A DNA stretch of 63,680 bases, filler included, from Aduncisulcus paluster (Eukaryota), in the NCBI GenBank assembly GCA_024181965.1. It is 44 parts of 44 records of this genome, joined end to end, with 100 filler letters (N's around TTAATTAATTAA, not from the genome) between each part and the next. Parts side by side here need not be neighbours in the genome. Positions count along the whole stretch, not along the records: positions 49,522 to 50,717 come from BQXS01010553.1; 43 more parts are not named here. One strand, 5' to 3'. Of the stretch, positions 1,459-52,944 are shown one piece after another; within the stretch, counting starts at the first letter, position 1, and every line of letters begins with the position of its first letter. The notes beneath the pieces are model-generated. The model worked only from the letters and a program-made list of their open reading frames with translations, did no database searches and was not told the DNA's origin. Position numbers and translations under genes: made by a program.

Positions 1459-4400
1459 ATTACTGGAGGAACACTTAGTATAGGAACCGCAGGTATTTCT
1501 TTTGGAGCTGGTGGAAATGGCACTTCGAGTTATACGGCAGCTGGTACACTAGCTGCAATTAATACTGCCTTGGATGCTGCAACTTTTACACCCACGCCTA
1601 ACCTAAGTGGGGTTAACGCAGGTACCATTTCGTTTACGACCAAGGATGGAACGGATACTTCAAGTCCTGCATCGGTTAGTTTTAATATAAATGATACATC
1701 AATTCCTACATTAACTTCGAGTGTGCCTATTGATAATGCTGATAATGCTTATTTAGGAACTAATATTGTTCTTGATTTTGATGACAATATGGTTGCGGGA
1801 ACGGGAAATATTACCATAAGACGTTTAAATGATGACACAGTCTTTGAACAAATTGCAATTAATGATCCTAAAATTACAATTACATCAAATCAAGTAATAA
1901 TTAATCCTGCTGGAATTCTATCAAGAGGACTTGCTTATTATATCGAGATTGATGCGACTGCATTGGACGACGATGCAGGAAATTCATTTGCAGGAATTAG
2001 TGGAAGTTCAACTCTTAATTTCACAGCAGTTGATGTTCTGATTAATGAAGTAGTAACTGATCCGCAACAAGATTGGAGCACTCATGATTTTATTGGAATA
2101 ATCGGTGATGGTGCAATAAGTACAGGAACTGATGAATGGATTGAGTTACTGATTAATTCTAATGGTATTGATCTTTCAGGTTGGACTTTAGAACTTTTGG
2201 ATGGAACTGATGTTGTGGGAGATTTAACAAATACAGGTGCTTTTGATGATATTGTTTTTTCAGGAATAGGTTCATTCAACAATACAAATTCAGGCGATTA
2301 TTTGATACTTGGGAATGTAGATGGTTCTGGAGCTATGAATAATTCGATTACCATCAATCTAAAAGATCCAAGCGGAGCTATTGTTGATGCAGTAGTCATT
2401 GGTGGAGGAGCTGGAGAAGCTCCTTCTGGAAATGCTGATAATATCTATAATGAATCAATTCAGCGTTTTTTCAATGGTTTGGATACCGATGTACATGATA
2501 ATGACTTTACTTTAGGAATGGCAAGTTTAGGTTCTGCAAACACAGGTCCAAGTGTAACCCTTTCTGCATCTACAGCTACCATTGCTGAAGCTGCTGGTAT
2601 CTCCACATTAACTGCTGAACTTAGTGAAATATCAAGTCAGGATGTAACGGTTACTTTGGCGGTGGACGGATCAAGCTCAGCTGTTCTGACTGATTATACT
2701 TTATCTTCTGCATCTATTGTTATTAATGCTGGAAGTTTAACAGGAACAGCTNNNNNNNNNNNNNNNNNNNNNNNNNNNNNNNNNNNNNNNNNNNNNNNNN
2801 NNNNNNNNNNNNNNNNNNNNNNNNNNNNNNNNNNNNNNNNNNNNNNNNNNNNNNNNNNNNNNNNNNNNNNNNNNNNNNNNNNNNNNNNNNNNNNNNNNNN
2901 NNNNATTTATAATTGATGATGACGATGTTCCCGCAGTAGCCTTTAATACAACTTCTTCAAATGCCTCGGAAGCGATAGGCAGTGCAAACTTGAAGGTTGA
3001 CCTTTCTGACATAAGCGGTCTGACCGTAACGGTTGACTATACGCTAACCGGTACTGCGACGGATGCAGATTATGCTTTGACAGATGGTACTCTAACAATT
3101 GCTCCAGGCAATGAAAATGAAAACATTACCATTGCAAGTATTGTGAATGACCTTTTGGATGAGAATAACGAAACAGTAATCGTGACGCTTACAAATCCTA
3201 CAAATGCAACATTGGGAACCAATACGGTTCATACTTATACGATTAATGATAATGATGCCACACCATCTATAGCTTTTAAAACGACTTCCTCTAGCGGTTT
3301 AGAAACGCTAGTTAGTGCTGATTTACAGGTTAATTTATCAGCAGAAAGTGGTTTAGATGTAACGGTTGATTATACGGTAAGTGGAACTGCAACAGAAGCA
3401 GATTATATTTTAGAGAATGGAACTCTGACAATAGGTTCAGGTGAGGATAGTGAGAACATTACAATTACAAATATTGTAAACGATTTTTTAGATGAGACGA
3501 ATGAAACAGTTATTCTAACTTTATCCAATCCGGTAAATGCAACACTTGGAACAAATACAGTACATACTTATACAATTAATGACGATGATGTGACAGGCTT
3601 CTCCTTTGCGGAAACAGACGGTGATACACAAGTATTCGAATCGGGTGCAAATGATTCTTTCACCGTGCAATTAGATGTTATACCTTCTTCAAATGTTGTT
3701 ATTGATCTTGTTAATGGCAATATCAGTGAGATTTCCTTGAGTACAGCAAACCTGACTTTTACACCAGACAACTGGAATGTTCCACAGGTAGTAAGTTTAA
3801 ATACCGTTGATGACAATTATGCCGATGGAGATCAAAATGTAATCATTACTCTCAGTATCAATGATGCAAACAGTGATGATGCATTTGATAATCTTGCAGA
3901 CGAAACGGTAATAGTTACTTCTGTAGATGATGAAGTTCCCGGATTTAGTCTGTCAAAAACGACAGCTATCATTAGTGAAGATGGAGGAACTGATAATTTT
4001 ACCGTGGTTTTGGATTGTCAACCACNNNNNNNNNNNNNNNNNNNNATTGTCAACCACTGACCGATGTTGTCTTGGAAGTAAGTAGTGGAGATACTGGTGA
4101 AGTAACTGTTTCATCACCTTCCTTAACATTTACAACAGGTAATTGGGATACTCCTCAAACCATTGATCTTACTGGTATTGATGATGCTATTGTGGATGGA
4201 AATAAAAATGTATCTATTACTATTGCTGTAAATGATGCAAGAAGTGACAATGTTTTTGATGCAGTACCCAACCAAAGCGTAATATGTACCAATGAGGATA
4301 ATGAAGAAGCTGGTTTTACTTTTAGGGAAACCGATGCTTATACACTTGTTAAGGAAACTCATACAACAGATCAGTTTTCAGTTGTTTTGAATGGACAACC

Positions 4401-5355
4401 AGCTAGTGATGTGGTTTTAAATATTAGTAGCGGGGATACCGGAGAGGCTACTGTTAGTTCCAGTAGTCTAACTTTTACCTACGACAACTGGAATATATCC
4501 CAAACCGTTATTGTCACTGGAGTTGATGATGCAATAGCGGATGGTTCTCAGGAAACAACTATTACTATTTCCGTGAATGCCCCTGGTAGTCACGATGCTT
4601 TTGATTCTTTAGAAGATAAAGAAGTTACAGTAATAAATGTTGATGATGATACGGCAGGATTTACAATTTCTCAAACTAATGGAGGTCCAAAAGTTAATGA
4701 AATAGGAATAATTGATACGATGTGGGTTGTTTTAAATAAGCAACCAGCTTCTGATGTGGTTCTTGGTTTTGAGAGTAGCGATGAAAATGAGATTATTCGA
4801 GAGCATGATGAGAATAGGTTTACTGTATCTAATTGGAATATGCCACAAGATTTTCGAATCAGGGGAATGGCTGACTATATTGTTGATGGTGAAGTTTATA
4901 CGGACCTAACAATTAAAGTACTAGATGCATATAGTGACAATGCTTATGATGCCTTACCTGACAGGGTAATAAGTGTTGTTAATATCGATAATGATATTGC
5001 TAGTTTTTCTTTATCTCCAGCAAACCTTAATGTTGTTGAAGATCATGGAACTGAAACATTTAAAATCACTCTTGGGACTGCAGCAGAAGGAGATGTAAGT
5101 TTTAACATTGCTAGTTCTGACGATGGTGTTGTTACTGTTTCTCATTCGAGCATTACAATACCAGCTGGTAACACTGAATCTGCAAATATTACACTTACCA
5201 TTCAGGATGATGATATAGCTGACGGTACAAAAGATGCAAATATTATTGTAAGTATTAATCAAGCTGTATCTTTCGATCCATTCGATGATCTTGAAGATGA
5301 AAAACTGCCAATTCAAGTTACCGATGATGAGGTAATTGAGTTGATTGTTGCAGGA
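1459..5355 (+). CDS. Giant surface adhesin-like protein, internal fragment (Ig-like Big_5, lamin-tail-like domain, multiple Calx-beta repeats), interrupted by two scaffold gaps
   Basis: PTLTSSVPIDNA..NIVLDFDD (Ig-like), VLINEVVTDP..DEWIEL (LTD-like), repeated TVDYT..GTAT..DY / DENNETVIVTL / YTINDND, and LTFTxxNWNxPQxV motifs; acidic, Thr/Ser-rich. Confidence 0.85.
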
Positions 5356-47104: not shown

Positions 47105-48272
47105 CTACTATAGAAGAAAATTTTAGAGATGATCCATTAAAACAAATGGTATTAGAAAAAATTACTGATGATACTTTGACTGTATATTCTCAAGGTGACT
47201 TTGAAGATTTATGTAGAGGTCCACACTTGCCAAATACAAAAATGATTAGAAACTTTAAACTTATTAGAGTTGCTGGTGCGTATTTAGGTGGAGATGAAGA
47301 GAATGAGATGATTACTAGAATTTATGGTATCTCATTTTTTGATAAGCAAGAACTAAAAGACTATATAACTATGCTTGAAGAAGCAAAAAAAAGAGATCAT
47401 AGAAGATTAGGTACAGATTTAAAGCTATTTACATTTAGTGATGATGTAGGTGCAGGTTTACCATTATGGCTTCCAAATGGTGCACGACTTAGAGGTAAAT
47501 TAGAACAACTTTTATATAAAGCTCATAGAGTAAGAGGATACCAGCCTGTACGTGCTCCGGAAATCTTAAAAGCAGAAGCTTGGGTAAAATCAGGACACTA
47601 TGCTAACTATAAAGAAAATATGTACTTTACATCAATTGACGATATGGAATATGGTTTAAAACCAATGAACTGTGTTGGACATATTGAAATATTTAAAAAT
47701 GATTTAGTTTCATATAAAGATTTACCACTTAAATTTTTCGAGTATGGTGTAGTTCATAGACATGAATTAAGTGGAGCTATGCATGGGTTATTTAGAGTAA
47801 GAGAGTTTACTCAAGATGATGCACATATATTTTGTACACAAGATCAAGTAAAATCTGTAATTATAGAAGTAATTGAGTTTGTTGAAAGTCTTATGTCTTT
47901 CTTTGGCTTTAAATATGAGATGGAAGTATCTACAAAACCTAAAAAAGCTATCGGAGATGATGCATTTTGGGAATCAACTACAAAAGGTATCAAAGATGCT
48001 TTAGATGAAAATGGATACACATATGGTATAGATGAAGGTGGTGGAGCATTTTATGGTCCAAAAATTGATATTAAAATAACAGATGCTATTGGAAGAAAAT
48101 GGCAATGTGGTACAATTCAGGTCGATATGAACCTACCTGAAAGATTTGATATCAACTATACTACATCAGATGATACAAGAGAGAGACCAGTAATGATTCA
48201 TAGAGCTATTCTTGGTTCTTTTGAAAGATTCATTGGAATTATGACAGAACACTTTGCTGGTGAATTTCCATT
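47105..48272 (+). CDS. thrS: Threonine--tRNA ligase, internal fragment
   Basis: DLCRGPH, RDHRRLG, LKPMNC, GLFRVREFTQDDAH, AFYGPKID, MIHRAILGSFERF. Confidence 0.98.
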
Positions 48273-48374
48273 NNNNNNNNNNNNNNNNNNNNNNNNNNNN
48301 NNNNNNNNNNNNNNNNTTAATTAATTAANNNNNNNNNNNNNNNNNNNNNNNNNNNNNNNNNNNNNNNNNNNNAC

Positions 48375-48914
48375 TGGGATAAATTTAAACAAGTTTTTGA
48401 CAGAGGTTTTAGTTTGGAACTTTTTAAAGGATTGGGGATTACTTTTAAGATTTTAAGAGGTGTGATTTTTAACAATGAATCACATAATACAAGATACCCT
48501 ATCGAAAAACTTCCAATAAGTCCTCGATATAGAGCGGTACATAAACTTCTAGCGCTTTTAGAAAGTGGAACAAACAGATGTATAGGCTGCGGGTTATGTG
48601 AAAAAATATGTATAGCAAACTGTATTCGAATGGATACTAAAATAGATGAAGAGTCACGAAAAGAAGTTTTAGAATATACGATAAATTTAGGACGATGTAT
48701 TTTTTGTGGGTATTGTGCTGAAGTTTGTCCAGAGTTAGCCATAGTTCATGGAGATAGATATGAAAATGCGAGTGAACAAAGAGAACATTTTGTTTTAAAA
48801 GAAGATATTTTGACTCCATTTGCAGAACTTCAACAACAGTTAGAATATCAAGGTTTTGGAGCAGTTTCACCAGATGCTGATGCTAGAATCAAAAAAACAC
48901 CGTTGGAATATTAA
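48375..48914 (+). CDS. nuoI: NADH-quinone oxidoreductase subunit I (Campylobacter-type), 5' truncated
   Basis: SPRYRAVHKL, CIGCGLCEKIC, CIFCGYCAEVCPELAIVHG. Confidence 0.95.
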   Translation, partial: WDKFKQVFDRGFSLELFKGLGITFKILRGVIFNNESHNTRYPIEKLPISPRYRAVHKLLALLESGTNRCIGCGLCEKICIANCIRMDTKIDEESRKEVLEYTINLGRCIFCGYCAEVCPELAIVHGDRYENASEQREHFVLKEDILTPFAELQQQLEYQGFGAVSPDADARIKKTPLEY

Positions 48915-48930
48915 ATATGAAGGATAATAT

Positions 48931-49421
48931 ATGTTTGAAGTAGTAGCTTTTTATCTATTTTCTTTTTTAACAATAGCTATGTTTAGCATAACTGTTATGA
49001 CAAAAAATGCACTTTATGCTTTAAGTTCACTAGCAGCTGGAATGATATTTATATCAGCATTTTTCTTTTTGCTTGGTGCTGAGTTTTTGGGTGCTGTGCA
49101 AATTGTTGTATATACAGGTGCTGTGATGGCACTCTATGCTTTTGGAATGATGTTTTTTGACTCAATGAAAGAGATAAAAGAATCACCACAAAACCCAAGG
49201 CTTACTTTTGTATTGACAGGAATGATTGCACTTATTATAGTATTTATTTTTACAGCTCCAATTATTGGTGCAAATATAACAGCAGAGTATCCGCTAGGAA
49301 TGGCTGCAGAATTATACGGAACAATTGATGGAAATACGCAAGATATAGGAATAGTTTTATTTACAAAATATTTAGTACCTTTTGAAGTTGCTGCTGTGAT
49401 GTTACTTGTTGCTATGATAGG
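48931..49421 (+). CDS. nuoJ: NADH-quinone oxidoreductase subunit J (Campylobacter-type), 3' truncated
   Basis: MFEVVAFY, QIVVYTGAVMALYAFGMMFFD, LVPFEVAAVMLLVAMI. Confidence 0.93.
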
Positions 49422-49521: not shown

Positions 49522-50098
49522 TTTTTGAACGGTCCTCATAATAGACTACCTCACATGGTCTAAGGGAGGATGTTATCTTGGCTTTGAGGCTTCCTAGTGG
49601 TGCCACAATCTTAGAAAGCAGGGAGTAATCGGTGAATATTTTCGCCGGTGGCCATTCTTTTATGAGCACACCTGATATATCTTCAAGGTCAACTGAGCCA
49701 GTTGGAGACAGCAATGTAAAGTGGTAGGACTCGAGCGCTACCCAGACAACATCTGATTCGGCGTCACCTCGGTTATAGAGAGTGATTCCACCCTGATCCA
49801 CGATACCAATGCAAATTTTTGCAGCTTTTGCAAACGCAAAAATTTCATCGGAAGTCGCAAGATAGTCGTGGTCCAGGGCTTCACCAACAGTCTTGGAACC
49901 GCCAAGATAGGACAAACATTTCATGGTTACACCGAGTCTTTTGGCAAGCTTCTCGTGAACCTTCCCGGTAAGGGCTGCGGACATGCAGTAATAAAAACAA
50001 AGATTATCCGTGCCACTTACGTAAGTTAACCGGGGGCAGTGACCAAAAATCGCAGTAAGAAGCTGTAAAATATTACGGGAGAGGGTATAACCTTCCAT
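49522..50098 (-). CDS. N-terminus of a protein starting with an OTU-like cysteine protease domain, 3' truncated
   Basis: VSGTDNLCFYYCMSAAL (Cys box), LATSDEIFAFAKAAKICIGIVD (central helix-strand), VWVALESYHFTLL (His box). Confidence 0.65.
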
Positions 50099-50497
50099 TA
50101 CTCGGGCAAATCGAAATTTCCGGGGATATCAACGGGTTACCACAAAAAAAAAAATTAATTGTTATCGCTTTATGCTTAATTAGATTATGATAGAGTTAAT
50201 CAGAGGTGGTAATTTATTTTATTTATTAGAATCATACCAAATCAGAGATCATGACTGGGGAGATACATGATCCTGTACTTCTCGAGCAGGATCTGAATGG
50301 GAAGAGGGCTCGAAGCAAAACACTTGAATTGAGTAAAAAGATATTCTAAACCTCATTATTATTTACTAAAAAATCAACCGGTGTCCAGGAGAATCATAAT
50401 TCGGGTTGTTCGTTGTTTGTTGTTGAACAACATGAAATAAAGGCGCCTGGAAAACGTAGGAATGTTACACCAAAGTAAAATTGTATCAAGTTGTTTT

Positions 50498-50717
50498 TTA
50501 TTCATCTTGGGTTTCTTCCTGGTCTTCATCTTCATTGAGGACCTTGAAGATAGACATGCGATGTGGCTGTGATGGAGCCCGGGAATGTTCTACCCGTGTT
50601 GTTGACTGTACAACTTCAGACTCTTCAACCCCACTTGATTGTGAGAGGCTCTGAGAAGCAACACTTGCAGCCCAATCCTTACAAGTGGCATATTCTCTCA
50701 GGATTTCCATTTCAGAT
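50498..50717 (-). CDS. C-terminus of an unknown protein with a Ser-rich, acidic disordered tail
   Basis: Open from the segment edge, ends NEDEDQEETQDE; same strand as the OTU-like ORF. Confidence 0.55.
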
Positions 50718-50853
50718 NNNNNNNNNNNNNNNNNNNNNNNNNNNNNNNNNNNNNNNNNNNNTTAATTAATTAANNNNNNNNNNNNNNNNNNNNNNNNNNN
50801 NNNNNNNNNNNNNNNNNCTGTTACACTTTTTAGTTCTAATATTGTTACATCTA

Positions 50854-51153
50854 TCATGATTGTTTCTCACTTAAAAATTTATACAGCATATCACTAATAC
50901 CAAGTGATCCTGATGATTTTTGAGAAAGAGCATCTGTATACATACCTTTTATGATATCTGAACCAGTTCCCTCTCCCGCCATTTTTGATGATTTTAATGA
51001 TACTTCTAAAATTTGATTCATAAAAAATGATTCAAAACTATTACATACATCTCTTAATGAACTATCATCTTTTAGATTTTGAGTACTCATAGATTCTAAT
51101 TTGTTAGGTTTTGTACTCATTATGTCTACAAATTGATTATTTATTTCCATCAT
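50854..51153 (-). CDS. Rod-binding (FlgJ N-terminal-like) protein
   Basis: LRDVCNSFESFFMNQIL..MYTDALS..LGISDMLYKFL. Confidence 0.85.
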   Translation of the reverse strand: MMEINNQFVDIMSTKPNKLESMSTQNLKDDSSLRDVCNSFESFFMNQILEVSLKSSKMAGEGTGSDIIKGMYTDALSQKSSGSLGISDMLYKFLSEKQS

Positions 51154-51159
51154 AACTCC

Positions 51160-51834
51160 TTATTCCTCTATTCTATCAAAAAAGCTTTCATCTTCAGCCA
51201 TTCTGTTACTGTCCTGACTTGTTGAAACAAATCGTAACTCTACTCTTCTATTTTCAAAAGCATTATCACTTTTTGGTCTATACGATCCAAATGCACTTAC
51301 TTTTAAAGTAGCTGGATCGATTCTATTTTTGATGAACTCTTTTACAACAGCAATTGATCGAAGAGCAGAAACATCCCATGAATCACGAGGAATACCATTT
51401 GATCTTTGATAATTGGAACCAGTATGACCAGCTACTTCAATATCAAATTCTTGTGTCATAGTTCGTAAAACCTTAGATACTTTTGTAATAAATCTTTTTG
51501 CATTAGGATTAGTCAGTTCATACTCCCCTTCTTCAAATATCAATGAAGAGGGTATATCTAAAGTAAATTCATTATTTCCTTTAAGTGTTAATTGAACTTC
51601 TTGATTGTCTTTATCACTTGTATCATTAAACTCCTGAGTAATCTCCTCAATCAGCTTAGAAACATCTGCAGACTCACTATCTTGCCCTACACTATCACCA
51701 CTTCCTGATTCTGATTTATCAGCGTGATATTGAGAAAGAGATTCTTTTTCTGCTTCTGCTGTATCTTGAGCACCTTGCAAAAAGCCCATACTTCTTCTCA
51801 TAATCTCAAAATACTCTTCAACTTTTTTCTTATC
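51160..51834 (-). CDS. motB: Flagellar motor protein MotB-like, 5' truncated
   Basis: OmpA-like domain IEVAGHT..WDVSALRSIAVV..AFGSYRP..NRRVE among flagellar genes. Confidence 0.85.
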   Translation of the reverse strand, partial: DKKKVEEYFEIMRRSMGFLQGAQDTAEAEKESLSQYHADKSESGSGDSVGQDSESADVSKLIEEITQEFNDTSDKDNQEVQLTLKGNNEFTLDIPSSLIFEEGEYELTNPNAKRFITKVSKVLRTMTQEFDIEVAGHTGSNYQRSNGIPRDSWDVSALRSIAVVKEFIKNRIDPATLKVSAFGSYRPKSDNAFENRRVELRFVSTSQDSNRMAEDESFFDRIEE

Positions 51835-51934
51835 NNNNNNNNNNNNNNNNNNNNNNNNNNNNNNNNNNNNNNNNNNNNTTAATTAATTAANNNNNNNNNN
51901 NNNNNNNNNNNNNNNNNNNNNNNNNNNNNNNNNN

Positions 51935-52491
51935 AGCTCTAAATCAAAACCTTTATTTCGTCCATCTTTATCAACCGATTGTAATAATATTTCTCCAGCA
52001 CCTCGTTTTTCAACTTCTTTTGCCCATTCTATTACATTTTTACCAGATTGAATCCGTCCACAATCACTATAACACTCCCAATGAGTGTCCCATTTTTTAG
52101 CTTCTATATTTACAACAACCGCTTGACTACCAAAAATTTCAGCCGCTTTATTTATAATAGTTGGATCTTCTTGTAATGCGAAAGTATTTATAGCAACTTT
52201 ATCCGCACCCAAATGAAAAAGTTTCGAAAAATCTTCAATAGACCTTACTGCTCCACCTACACCAAAAGGTATAAATAAATTATTTGCTGTCTTTTCAATT
52301 TCATCAAATACAATATCTCTTTGATATAAAGAAGATACAATATCTATATACATAACTTCATCTGCACCTTGCTCATAATATTTCTTTGCCATTTCAAAAG
52401 GAAACCCCACTTTTCTTAATCCTTCAAAATGTACAGGTTTCACTACATAGGGAGGTTTGACATCTAATTTTACTATTATTCTTGTATTCAT
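51935..52491 (-). CDS. HisF-like cyclase paralogue in a sugar-modification locus, 3' truncated
   Basis: RIIVKLDVK, QGADEV, GADKVAINT, FGSQAVVV, GAGEILLQSVDKDG; directly downstream of neuC. Confidence 0.9.
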
Positions 52492-52496
52492 CTATT

Positions 52497-52944
52497 TTAT
52501 TTCTCCTTTTTTAGATCATGAAAAGATTTTTTTAATATATTATCTAAATCAACATTTTTTATAACTTCAATAATTTGTTCACTAGCGCATCCATCACCAT
52601 AGGGATTTTTTACTGTTTTTAAAATATCTTTGAACTCACTCAAATAAAGTTTATCAAAAGCTTTTTTAATACTTGGTTTATTTGGTTCACAATCTAGCAC
52701 ACTGTCTGCTTTGATTCGCCCTTTTTGTCTATCTCCAATATTGATTGTTCCTATTTTAAAACTAGGAGCTTCGGCTAATCCACTTGAACTATTTCCTACC
52801 ATCGCATCTACATATTGTAAAGCACTTAGATATCTAAGTTGTCCTAAAGATGTAAAGCATACTGCTTTATGAGCATTTTTAGCCACATAGTCATCACACA
52901 TTTGATTTATAATTCTTCCATCAGTGTCACTATTTGCTTTTGTG
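52497..52944 (-). CDS. neuC: UDP-GlcNAc 2-epimerase, hydrolysing (NeuC/LegG), C-terminus
   Basis: SLGQLRYLS, VGNSSSGLAEAPS, NIGDRQKGR, NPYGDG. Confidence 0.9.

Follow-up and report, generated by a model that had tools for sequence, protein, structure and literature searches.

Contig C10553 of the Aduncisulcus paluster genome assembly (G000) carries an open reading frame that opens with an OTU-like domain and is truncated by the contig end, which raises the question of what kind of gene this is and what entity it serves. An earlier note on this DNA had proposed the 5' end of a polymerase or polyprotein gene of a virus or retroelement. A. paluster is described as a free-living fornicate flagellate, a relative of Giardia. 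The window, a stretch of 63,680 nucleotides, consists of short unrelated contigs joined by N spacers; the gene piece of 1,196 bases occupies positions 49522-50717 and is identical to C10553. The following features were recognised on it:

49522-50098, minus strand: OTU-zinc-finger gene, subfamily 1, codons 1-192 of 242; the remaining 50 codons, which include the CxxC and HxxxC ligands, are taken from contigs C461 and C633 of G000.
49694-50098, minus strand: predicted OTU-fold protease domain, approximately residues 1-135, from fold searches.
49997-50008, minus strand: Cys box Asp31-x-x-Cys34 with predicted nucleophile Cys34, from the family alignment and aligned with the Cys box of yeast Otu1.
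49715-49723, minus strand: His box His126-Phe-Thr128, with Thr at the canonical OTU Asp/Asn position, from alignments and the accessible text of PMC3744425.
49522-49606, minus strand: start of the C-terminal helix and beta-sheet zinc-finger module, from about residue 165 onward, by alignment and model.
50099-50248, minus strand: upstream flank, 90% common with the copy in contig C12620; the match stops at 50248, the first junction, where a read-derived contig spans the joint without any difference.
50248-50379, plus strand: patchwork filler of a 53-base and a 51-base piece resembling C12620:5194-5246 and 4468-4518, by sequence comparison.
50447-50476, plus strand: second junction, together with what is left of a subfamily-3 OTU-finger gene (its last few codons); sister copies have that gene here.
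50498-50717, minus strand: 3' end of accessory gene ORF-X, the whole of which is found in contig C1316 (100% identity over 218 bases).

The frame begins at an ATG at 50098, with no Shine-Dalgarno-like stretch before it, and leaves the contig at 49522, as described previously; on the minus strand, Asp31 is encoded at 50008-50006, Cys34 at 49999-49997 and His126 at 49723-49721. The GC content of the gene piece is 42%, versus 33% and 32% in the two adjoining segments. The difference in composition from bacterial segments that the earlier note remarked upon is real as a figure, but it compares unrelated contigs that were joined by N spacers. The two low-GC neighbours (window positions 47105-49421 and 50818-52944) are contigs of co-assembled bacteria unrelated to the OTU gene, on which genes of threonyl-tRNA synthetase, NADH dehydrogenase subunits and a flagellar motor protein were recognised by eye.

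The length of the gene was established from other contigs. C461 contains the whole frame and is 99.7% identical to the window piece over a 679-base overlap, while C633, 100% identical over 364 bases, holds the gene end; in both, the frame closes 50 codons beyond the window edge, giving a protein of 242 aa. A copy in C12620, 92% identical, stops at the same codon, and corresponds to a database protein (P0001) of 242 aa. No same-strand frame of at least 60 aa is present in the 730 bases downstream of the gene in C633, and no RdRp, reverse transcriptase or helicase follows the OTU-zinc-finger ORF when the contig is extended. The gene is thus a complete, free-standing 242-aa OTU and zinc-finger ORF, and because the frame closes at 242 aa in three contigs the reading as the start of a polymerase or polyprotein is refuted. 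An identity as the 5' end of a nairovirus- or tenuivirus-like L protein, another viral polyprotein or a retroelement ORF has accordingly next to no probability: the structures of nairovirus OTU proteases do match the protein (Z 9-11), as expected for any OTU fold, but the sequence is present in a DNA-type run and in multiple copies, and one subfamily of the genes apparently bears an intron.

Searches of G000 gave 13 matches to subfamily 1, among which members of subfamilies 2 and 3 were also caught, and 24 to subfamily 4; here and below, match counts in G000 are not copy numbers. Contig depth, at 3,317-3,783 in the window-type pieces and 1,162-1,217 in the variant, is likewise not taken as copy number. 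A sequencing run that may be of RNA yielded a single partial piece of 96 bases, which counts neither for nor against expression. In contig C11332 the subfamily-3 gene lies in two exons, split by an apparent intron. A fusion of OTU and SET reading frames by splicing was considered and judged unlikely, since no SET gene follows a window-type copy and since the database protein stops at 242 aa. A comparison of window-type with C12620 copies by the Nei-Gojobori method gave 21.5 synonymous and 24.5 replacement changes over 242 codons, a dN/dS of 0.33 (Fisher p 2e-4); dN/dS is also below 1 in other pairs with estimable dS, and in more distant pairs the synonymous sites are near saturation and the replacement sites are not. 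The gene family is under purifying selection.

NCBI names the nearest protein in the databases, at 92%, as a hypothetical protein of Aduncisulcus paluster. Database searches for relatives covered proteins of near length; within that scope there was one relative among 478 candidates, three among 1.84 billion representatives (all of the OTU-finger family), two among 2,246, and at least seven among 8,000 scored. Every named relative is from A. paluster and none was found outside this species among near-length proteins, which bears out the earlier assignment of the gene to the eukaryote in the assembly. A single-protein query, which finds close relatives only, detected no relative in viral contigs and gave 197 pattern matches in metagenome contigs, none of them confirmed.

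The membership of the domain in the OTU fold was examined with an AlphaFold2 model built from eight family sequences (pLDDT 70). When 48,161 chains were searched with this predicted model, rows 1 to 31 of the best 50 were all of OTU type, with OTUD3 at the top (Z 12.4, rmsd 2.8, 122 residues aligned). Cellular OTUD3, Otu2, OTUD1 and OTUD2 (Z 11.8-12.4) score slightly above nairovirus OTU proteases (Z 9-11), and the PRO peptidase of TYMV scores Z 5.9. Foldseek matched A20 (E 2.6e-4) and yeast Otu1 (E 4.3e-4), and a profile of 18 members searched against PDB sequences placed yeast Otu1 first, weakly (E 0.24), with the Cys and His boxes in register. The Cys box, the central TSDEI..ICIGIVD stretch and the His box all lie where the earlier note had placed them, and the fold matches put their agreement beyond chance. 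By sequence the family is less visible: the Pfam OTU family matches none of 18 members, PDB sequence searches with the window protein returned no OTU match, and a genome search with PF02338 found six other loci, none of the OTU-finger family. UniRef labels one subfamily-4 member 'OTU domain-containing protein'.

The family alignment has 18 rows; Cys34 is conserved in all 15 that cover it, as is His126 in its 15. At His+2, Thr, Arg or Gln is found in every one of 15 rows and Asp or Asn in none, the Asp at Cys-3 is found in only 6 of 15, and Leu80, as read from the Otu1 profile alignment, appears to stand in place of a conserved Trp. Asp or Asn at His+2 is the third catalytic residue of canonical OTUs according to the accessible text of PMC3744425. 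The predicted fold, together with Cys and His in OTU order, places the domain among the OTU-fold (clan CA) cysteine proteases, and by its sequence (no Asp/Asn at His+2, no Pfam score) the protein is not assignable to the canonical triad OTU deubiquitinases of PF02338. It is probably an active protease, for which ubiquitin would be the substrate. The same cargo gene might instead encode a weak or non-ubiquitin peptidase, acting on H3-like tails or proteins of the element, or a ubiquitin-binding scaffold. The missing third residue and Trp mirror the active site of TYMV PRO, described in PMC3744425, as far as its text is accessible, as a processing peptidase and weak deubiquitinase with the same two losses, and the want of a Pfam OTU score fits this reading as well. 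We regard it as rather improbable, since the structure is nearer to cellular OTUD3, Otu2 and OTUD1 (Z about 12) than to TYMV PRO and since Cys-His dyads occur among OTU-like deubiquitinases (PMC10318531, accessible text).

The C-terminal 80 aa form a second module, in which CxxC and HxxxC are invariant in 19 of 19 aligned rows and which is modelled as one helix and four strands (pLDDT 86). Its fold search gave no match at Z of 8 or more, and Foldseek none at E of 0.001 or below. The candidate match is the AFT2-DNA structure 4LMG (Z 5.2, rmsd 3.4, 71 residues aligned), tied with an unrelated protein (Z 5.3); the AFT2-type fold is one that we take to be a WRKY-GCM1-type DNA-binding finger. The finger is also present without an OTU domain in a separate gene, ORF-Z, and is thus a reusable module. 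ORF-Z was noted at L009:4599-5150 (plus strand) and L108:8790-9347 (minus strand), and in C12564 it lies upstream of a transposase piece; its start is weakly H3-like, with scores of 37-40 that fall inside the shuffled range. The finger profile matches the N-termini of transposases in five of six tested (E 4e-7 to 0.03, in a small database). The first half of the finger also resembles, more weakly than it does the transposase N-termini, the C2H2 finger of a host Otu1-like gene, a likeness that would favour ubiquitin over DNA as the ligand of the finger. The finger may bind DNA.

The genes that accompany the OTU-finger family identify its carrier. Contig C11332 (7,544 bases) has a CACTA end at position 679, followed by a palindromic repeat array, ORF-X, a subfamily-3 OTU-finger gene, a gene with an H3-like start and helical body, a subfamily-4 OTU-finger gene and a transposase C-terminus, so that OTU-finger genes lie inside a CACTA end. 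The transposase C-terminus corresponds to part of transposase frames of 908 and 927 aa elsewhere. The same 19-base end occurs in C9703, C11332 and C10055 with different flanks, and not at all in the reversed control; as the next base is common to all three, the end may extend by one base more. This end fits the 5'-CA..TG-3' termini of EnSpm/CACTA-like transposons. In C9703 the order is transposase, SET gene, array and CACTA end. OTU-finger genes are joined to a transposase in C10269 and C10308 as well as in C11332. Transposases of the family (69 matches in G000) align with D, D, C(2)C, H(3-4)H and E as read by eye, which is the signature of the CMCT clade in the accessible text of PMC12730594; Pfam support for Plavaka is negligible (E 0.052, in one of four long copies).

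Homologues of ORF-X are present on six of the fetched transposase contigs, and ORF-X of the window is 61% identical to that beside the CACTA end in C11332. The fetched loci that have an OTU or finger hit number 45, and in 18 of them another gene of the element is present (3 transposase, 9 ORF-X, 5 H3-tail or helical-body and 4 SET); the share is not that of a random sample, because the loci were chosen by similarity to element genes. Of the other 27, 26 are no longer than 1,285 bases. No complete element, no target-site duplication and no contig with both ends of one copy was seen among these sequences. No Pfam family was found for ORF-X or the K27-mimic genes (see below) among those scanned. 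At least four OTU-finger subfamilies travel with this CACTA-like (CMCT) transposon family, and the ORF of the window is very probably an accessory gene of such a CACTA/EnSpm-like DNA transposon family of a fornicate protist. The mobile origin suggested earlier thus stands as far as a repeated mobile element is concerned, but its carrier is a DDE cut-and-paste transposon and not an RNA virus or retroelement; nor is the gene an ordinary single-copy cellular one.

Several side observations concern the same transposon-rich DNA. An inverted repeat of about 100 bases (L051:4076-4176 and L049:2162-2261, 77% alike) sits in the spacer before an H3-tail gene and between transposase and SET genes, and may be a shared promoter or binding site. 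Other transposon-like frames (L215 in C11439, L217 in C12120, L218 and L219) open with a Pfam-positive OTU domain, one of them looking like a Mutator-OTU fusion, so that OTU domains have been acquired by at least two kinds of DNA transposon in this genome. OTU-like fragments of further types, recognised by their motifs by eye, lie in degenerate transposon regions of C12756 and C12408 (L054:5065-5493 and L163:5847-6182, both minus strand).

Two further origins were weighed against this carrier. One is that the genes are an expanded host family derived from Otu1/YOD1 and merely located in transposon-rich DNA. The best cellular match of the family profile is indeed the host Otu1-like gene in C11432 (E 5e-4 in a small set), over a span from His box to CxxC; yeast Otu1 came first in the profile search of PDB sequences, and the contig of the window copy has no transposase. 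However, the host gene with the UBX-like, OTU and C2H2 layout of an Otu1/YOD1 orthologue is a separate locus, whereas the window protein starts with its OTU domain; members of the family are found within a CACTA end and next to transposases, keeping a fixed order relative to the element genes, and their copies have been rearranged by swaps and filler DNA. We consider a host family very improbable. No more credible is the second, that the gene is part of a large DNA virus (Nucleocytoviricota), whether endogenous or co-assembled, or of a Polinton-like element. OTU and SET genes are carried by large DNA viruses; the two top-ranking Atlas clusters (0.92 and 0.90) consist of hypothetical viral proteins, mostly of Nucleocytoviricota, and among the viral fold matches an iridovirus OTU comes first (E 6e-5, 16% identity). 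Against this, the viral fold matches are generic, at 9-20% identity across unrelated virus groups; the single-protein query of viral contigs found no relative; the neighbours identified are transposase, SET genes and CACTA ends; and no capsid, packaging ATPase or DNA polymerase was recognised among the frames listed, most of which had no viral-family scan. A search of G000 with the capsid family PF04451 had no match, and its control also matched nowhere. The OTU gene may have an older viral origin.

The window copy is linked to the transposon through ORF-X, its flanking DNA and its sister subfamilies, and it has been rearranged. Sister copies have a subfamily-3 OTU-finger gene on which ORF-X converges; in the window this gene is missing from the start codon to the last few codons. 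In its place is an inverted replacement consisting of the subfamily-1 cassette (93% identical to C12620) and two filler pieces of about 50 bases, of which the 51-base piece is the 3' end of another accessory-gene family (frame end ..ELSKKIF, then stop). One OTU-finger gene has therefore replaced another. The downstream joint, which rests on C461 and C633 only, has a 4-base microhomology, and past it the DNA runs into a gene starting MARTK. Misassembly was rejected for the two upstream junctions, both of which are bridged without difference by read-derived contigs; the read run may be from the source sample, so this evidence is not independent. An overlap walk from the window copy led to ORF-X upstream and the H3-like gene downstream, with no terminus or transposase in any contig reached. 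Template switching during gap repair, a process of plant DNA transposons, probably made the rearrangement.

Two other classes of accessory gene are associated with the OTU-finger genes. A SET gene adjoins them in four loci, and the order in C12620 is ORF-X, OTU-finger gene, SET gene and a gene starting MARSKQTARK. SET genes gave 29 matches in G000, cellular ones included; the accessory SET gene matches PF00856 (E 5e-11), and its closest solved structures are KMT2A/B (E 5e-14), a likeness that does not fix the target lysine. A more distant SET gene (38%) at L052:3099-4019 (minus strand, C11425) converges on a non-LTR retrotransposon-like frame of 1,000 codons.

The second class consists of non-histone genes that open like histone H3. 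The H3-like-start pattern had 14 hits, with none in the control; four are true histones and ten are non-histone genes, all from families tied to CACTA-like elements. The ten, which start MAR(T/S)KQT, and a further gene family that starts with MARTK only are at L057-L063, L066, L067, L070 and L203:743-1057 (plus strand). The MAR(T/S)KQT genes have a low-complexity linker and then, where visible, a helical body, which by Atlas features only resembles armadillo proteins (0.94, 157 shared features), a lead at this stage; they converge on subfamily-4 OTU genes in five loci. Tail and body are in one frame in four of the ten genes, and out of frame in C11332. Independently of the start pattern, a comparison of residues 14-34 of host H3 with 3,754 frames matched five that are not histones (four distinct genes), with scores of 59-76 compared to a maximum of 41 in 30 shuffles, and all five matches begin 1-3 residues past a methionine, the predicted start codons. 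In the best match, 18 residues around K27 agree almost exactly. These K27-region mimic genes are at L158:1221-1877 (minus strand, C94), L158:2024-2299 (plus strand), L165/L170 and L009:4206-4415 (minus strand). Besides canonical H3 copies, a divergent histone H3 variant of 149 aa was noted at L069:4012-4031 (minus strand, C12414).

From these associations a mechanism can be proposed, in which the finger would dock the OTU protein on the element's own DNA or chromatin, where the OTU domain would strip ubiquitin from nucleosomes or silencing factors. It would act together with the MLL-like SET methyltransferase of the element, and the proteins opening with copies of the H3 tail (K4 or K27 region) would be decoys or docking pegs for host readers and writers, with the net outcome that the element is kept out of host silencing. 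Action in the nucleus and against silencing is a plausible function for the protein, and the whole chain of steps comes close to an even chance of being correct. The wider generalisation, that CACTA-like elements carry a multi-gene chromatin counter-silencing kit of element-targeted deubiquitinase, MLL-like methyltransferase and H3-tail mimics, whose cargo is swapped as modules, is possible and on the doubtful side. Somewhat unlikely, in our estimation, is that the same transposon cargo is a true deubiquitinase with the transposase or DNA-repair factors at the excision or insertion site as its target, where it would protect the transposase from degradation or steer repair and not alter chromatin marks. 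Such a role has been proposed for the OTU and Ulp1 domains of Ginger1, Helitron and Mutator (PMC2836005, accessible text), and it is consistent with the OTU-finger genes directly after the transposase in C11332 and C10269, with the likeness of the finger to transposase N-termini, and with the Pfam-positive OTU domains that lead long transposase-like frames in this genome (L215, L217). In this family, however, the OTU stands as a gene of its own and has been retained by several subfamilies in the company of SET and H3-tail genes, an arrangement that favours chromatin as the target.

The chromatin anti-silencing role is made directly testable by the presence of the OTU gene beside SET genes and H3-tail look-alikes, and a free-standing gene of 242 aa is small and easy to express and assay. 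If the H3-like peptides are decoys, histone mimicry would be a strategy of transposons as well as of viruses, and the cargo would reveal by which histone marks mobile DNA is silenced in a eukaryotic lineage that is poorly known. Should the protein prove inactive, or the transposase be its only target, the finding is a modest addition to known cargo.

Comparison with known systems was made against the accessible text of the sources cited. The Plavaka (EnSpm/CACTA) elements of red algae with their PAG1-3 cassette (bioRxiv 10.1101/2025.02.11.637652) are likewise of CMCT type with several separate accessory genes, and they share a SET gene, inverted-repeat arrays, a cassette that moves between element families, and a proposed anti-silencing role, put forward as a hypothesis. 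Unlike the A. paluster elements, they have no OTU in the text available (0 occurrences) and no histone-tail mimics were found there; their other cargo consists of an adenine methylase, ParB and a 2OG oxygenase. Ginger1 and Helitron are DNA transposons that also carry OTU domains, for which a role of the ubiquitin system in transposition has been proposed; as far as its text is accessible, PMC2836005 offers only a guess as to why DNA transposons repeatedly acquire OTU or Ulp1 proteases. The Ginger1 OTU is fused to the transposase and matches pfam02338 (PMC2836005), whereas that of A. paluster is free-standing, has its own finger and no Pfam match, and belongs to a different transposon superfamily. 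Fungal TET/JBP transposons, HarbingerS with SET, and VANDAL with VANC, which acts on its own element, similarly carry anti-silencing enzymes or factors (PMC12730594, PMC13547354), but they target DNA methylation or carry SET alone, and the accessible parts of these sources contain no deubiquitinase, no H3-tail peptide and no occurrence of 'OTU'. No free-standing OTU-finger gene in a CMCT element and no H3-mimic transposon gene appear in the parts available of PMC5751038, PMC13547354 and PMC12085086. Nor did the literature searched yield a paper on OTU genes in EnSpm/CACTA elements or on transposon histone-tail mimics, although Repbase Reports, subscription literature and bioRxiv supplements may hold cases.

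Among cellular proteins the best structural matches to the modelled domain are Otu1/YOD1 (OTUD2), OTUD3, OTUD1 and Otu2 (PDB 3BY4, 4BOZ, 4BOU, 4BOP and 7PL7; Z 10.6-12.4). Otu1 also has a zinc finger after its OTU domain, but the finger of Otu1 is C2H2 and that of the transposon gene is CxxC..HxxxC on a helix and sheet module; identity to the cellular OTUs is 11-15%, with no UBX-like N-terminus and with the third catalytic residue missing. The nearest parallel for the H3-like genes is that of viral histone mimics (PMC11738798, accessible text), in which proteins of a genetic parasite that are not histones likewise bear short motifs resembling the H3 tail; these are described for viruses, whereas here several accessory genes of a transposon open with them, matching host H3 over up to 18 residues. 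Judged by the accessible parts of these sources, OTU genes on transposons are known (PMC2836005), as are SET genes on CACTA-type elements (bioRxiv 10.1101/2025.02.11.637652), and the histone-tail mimics are the novel part of the A. paluster cargo.
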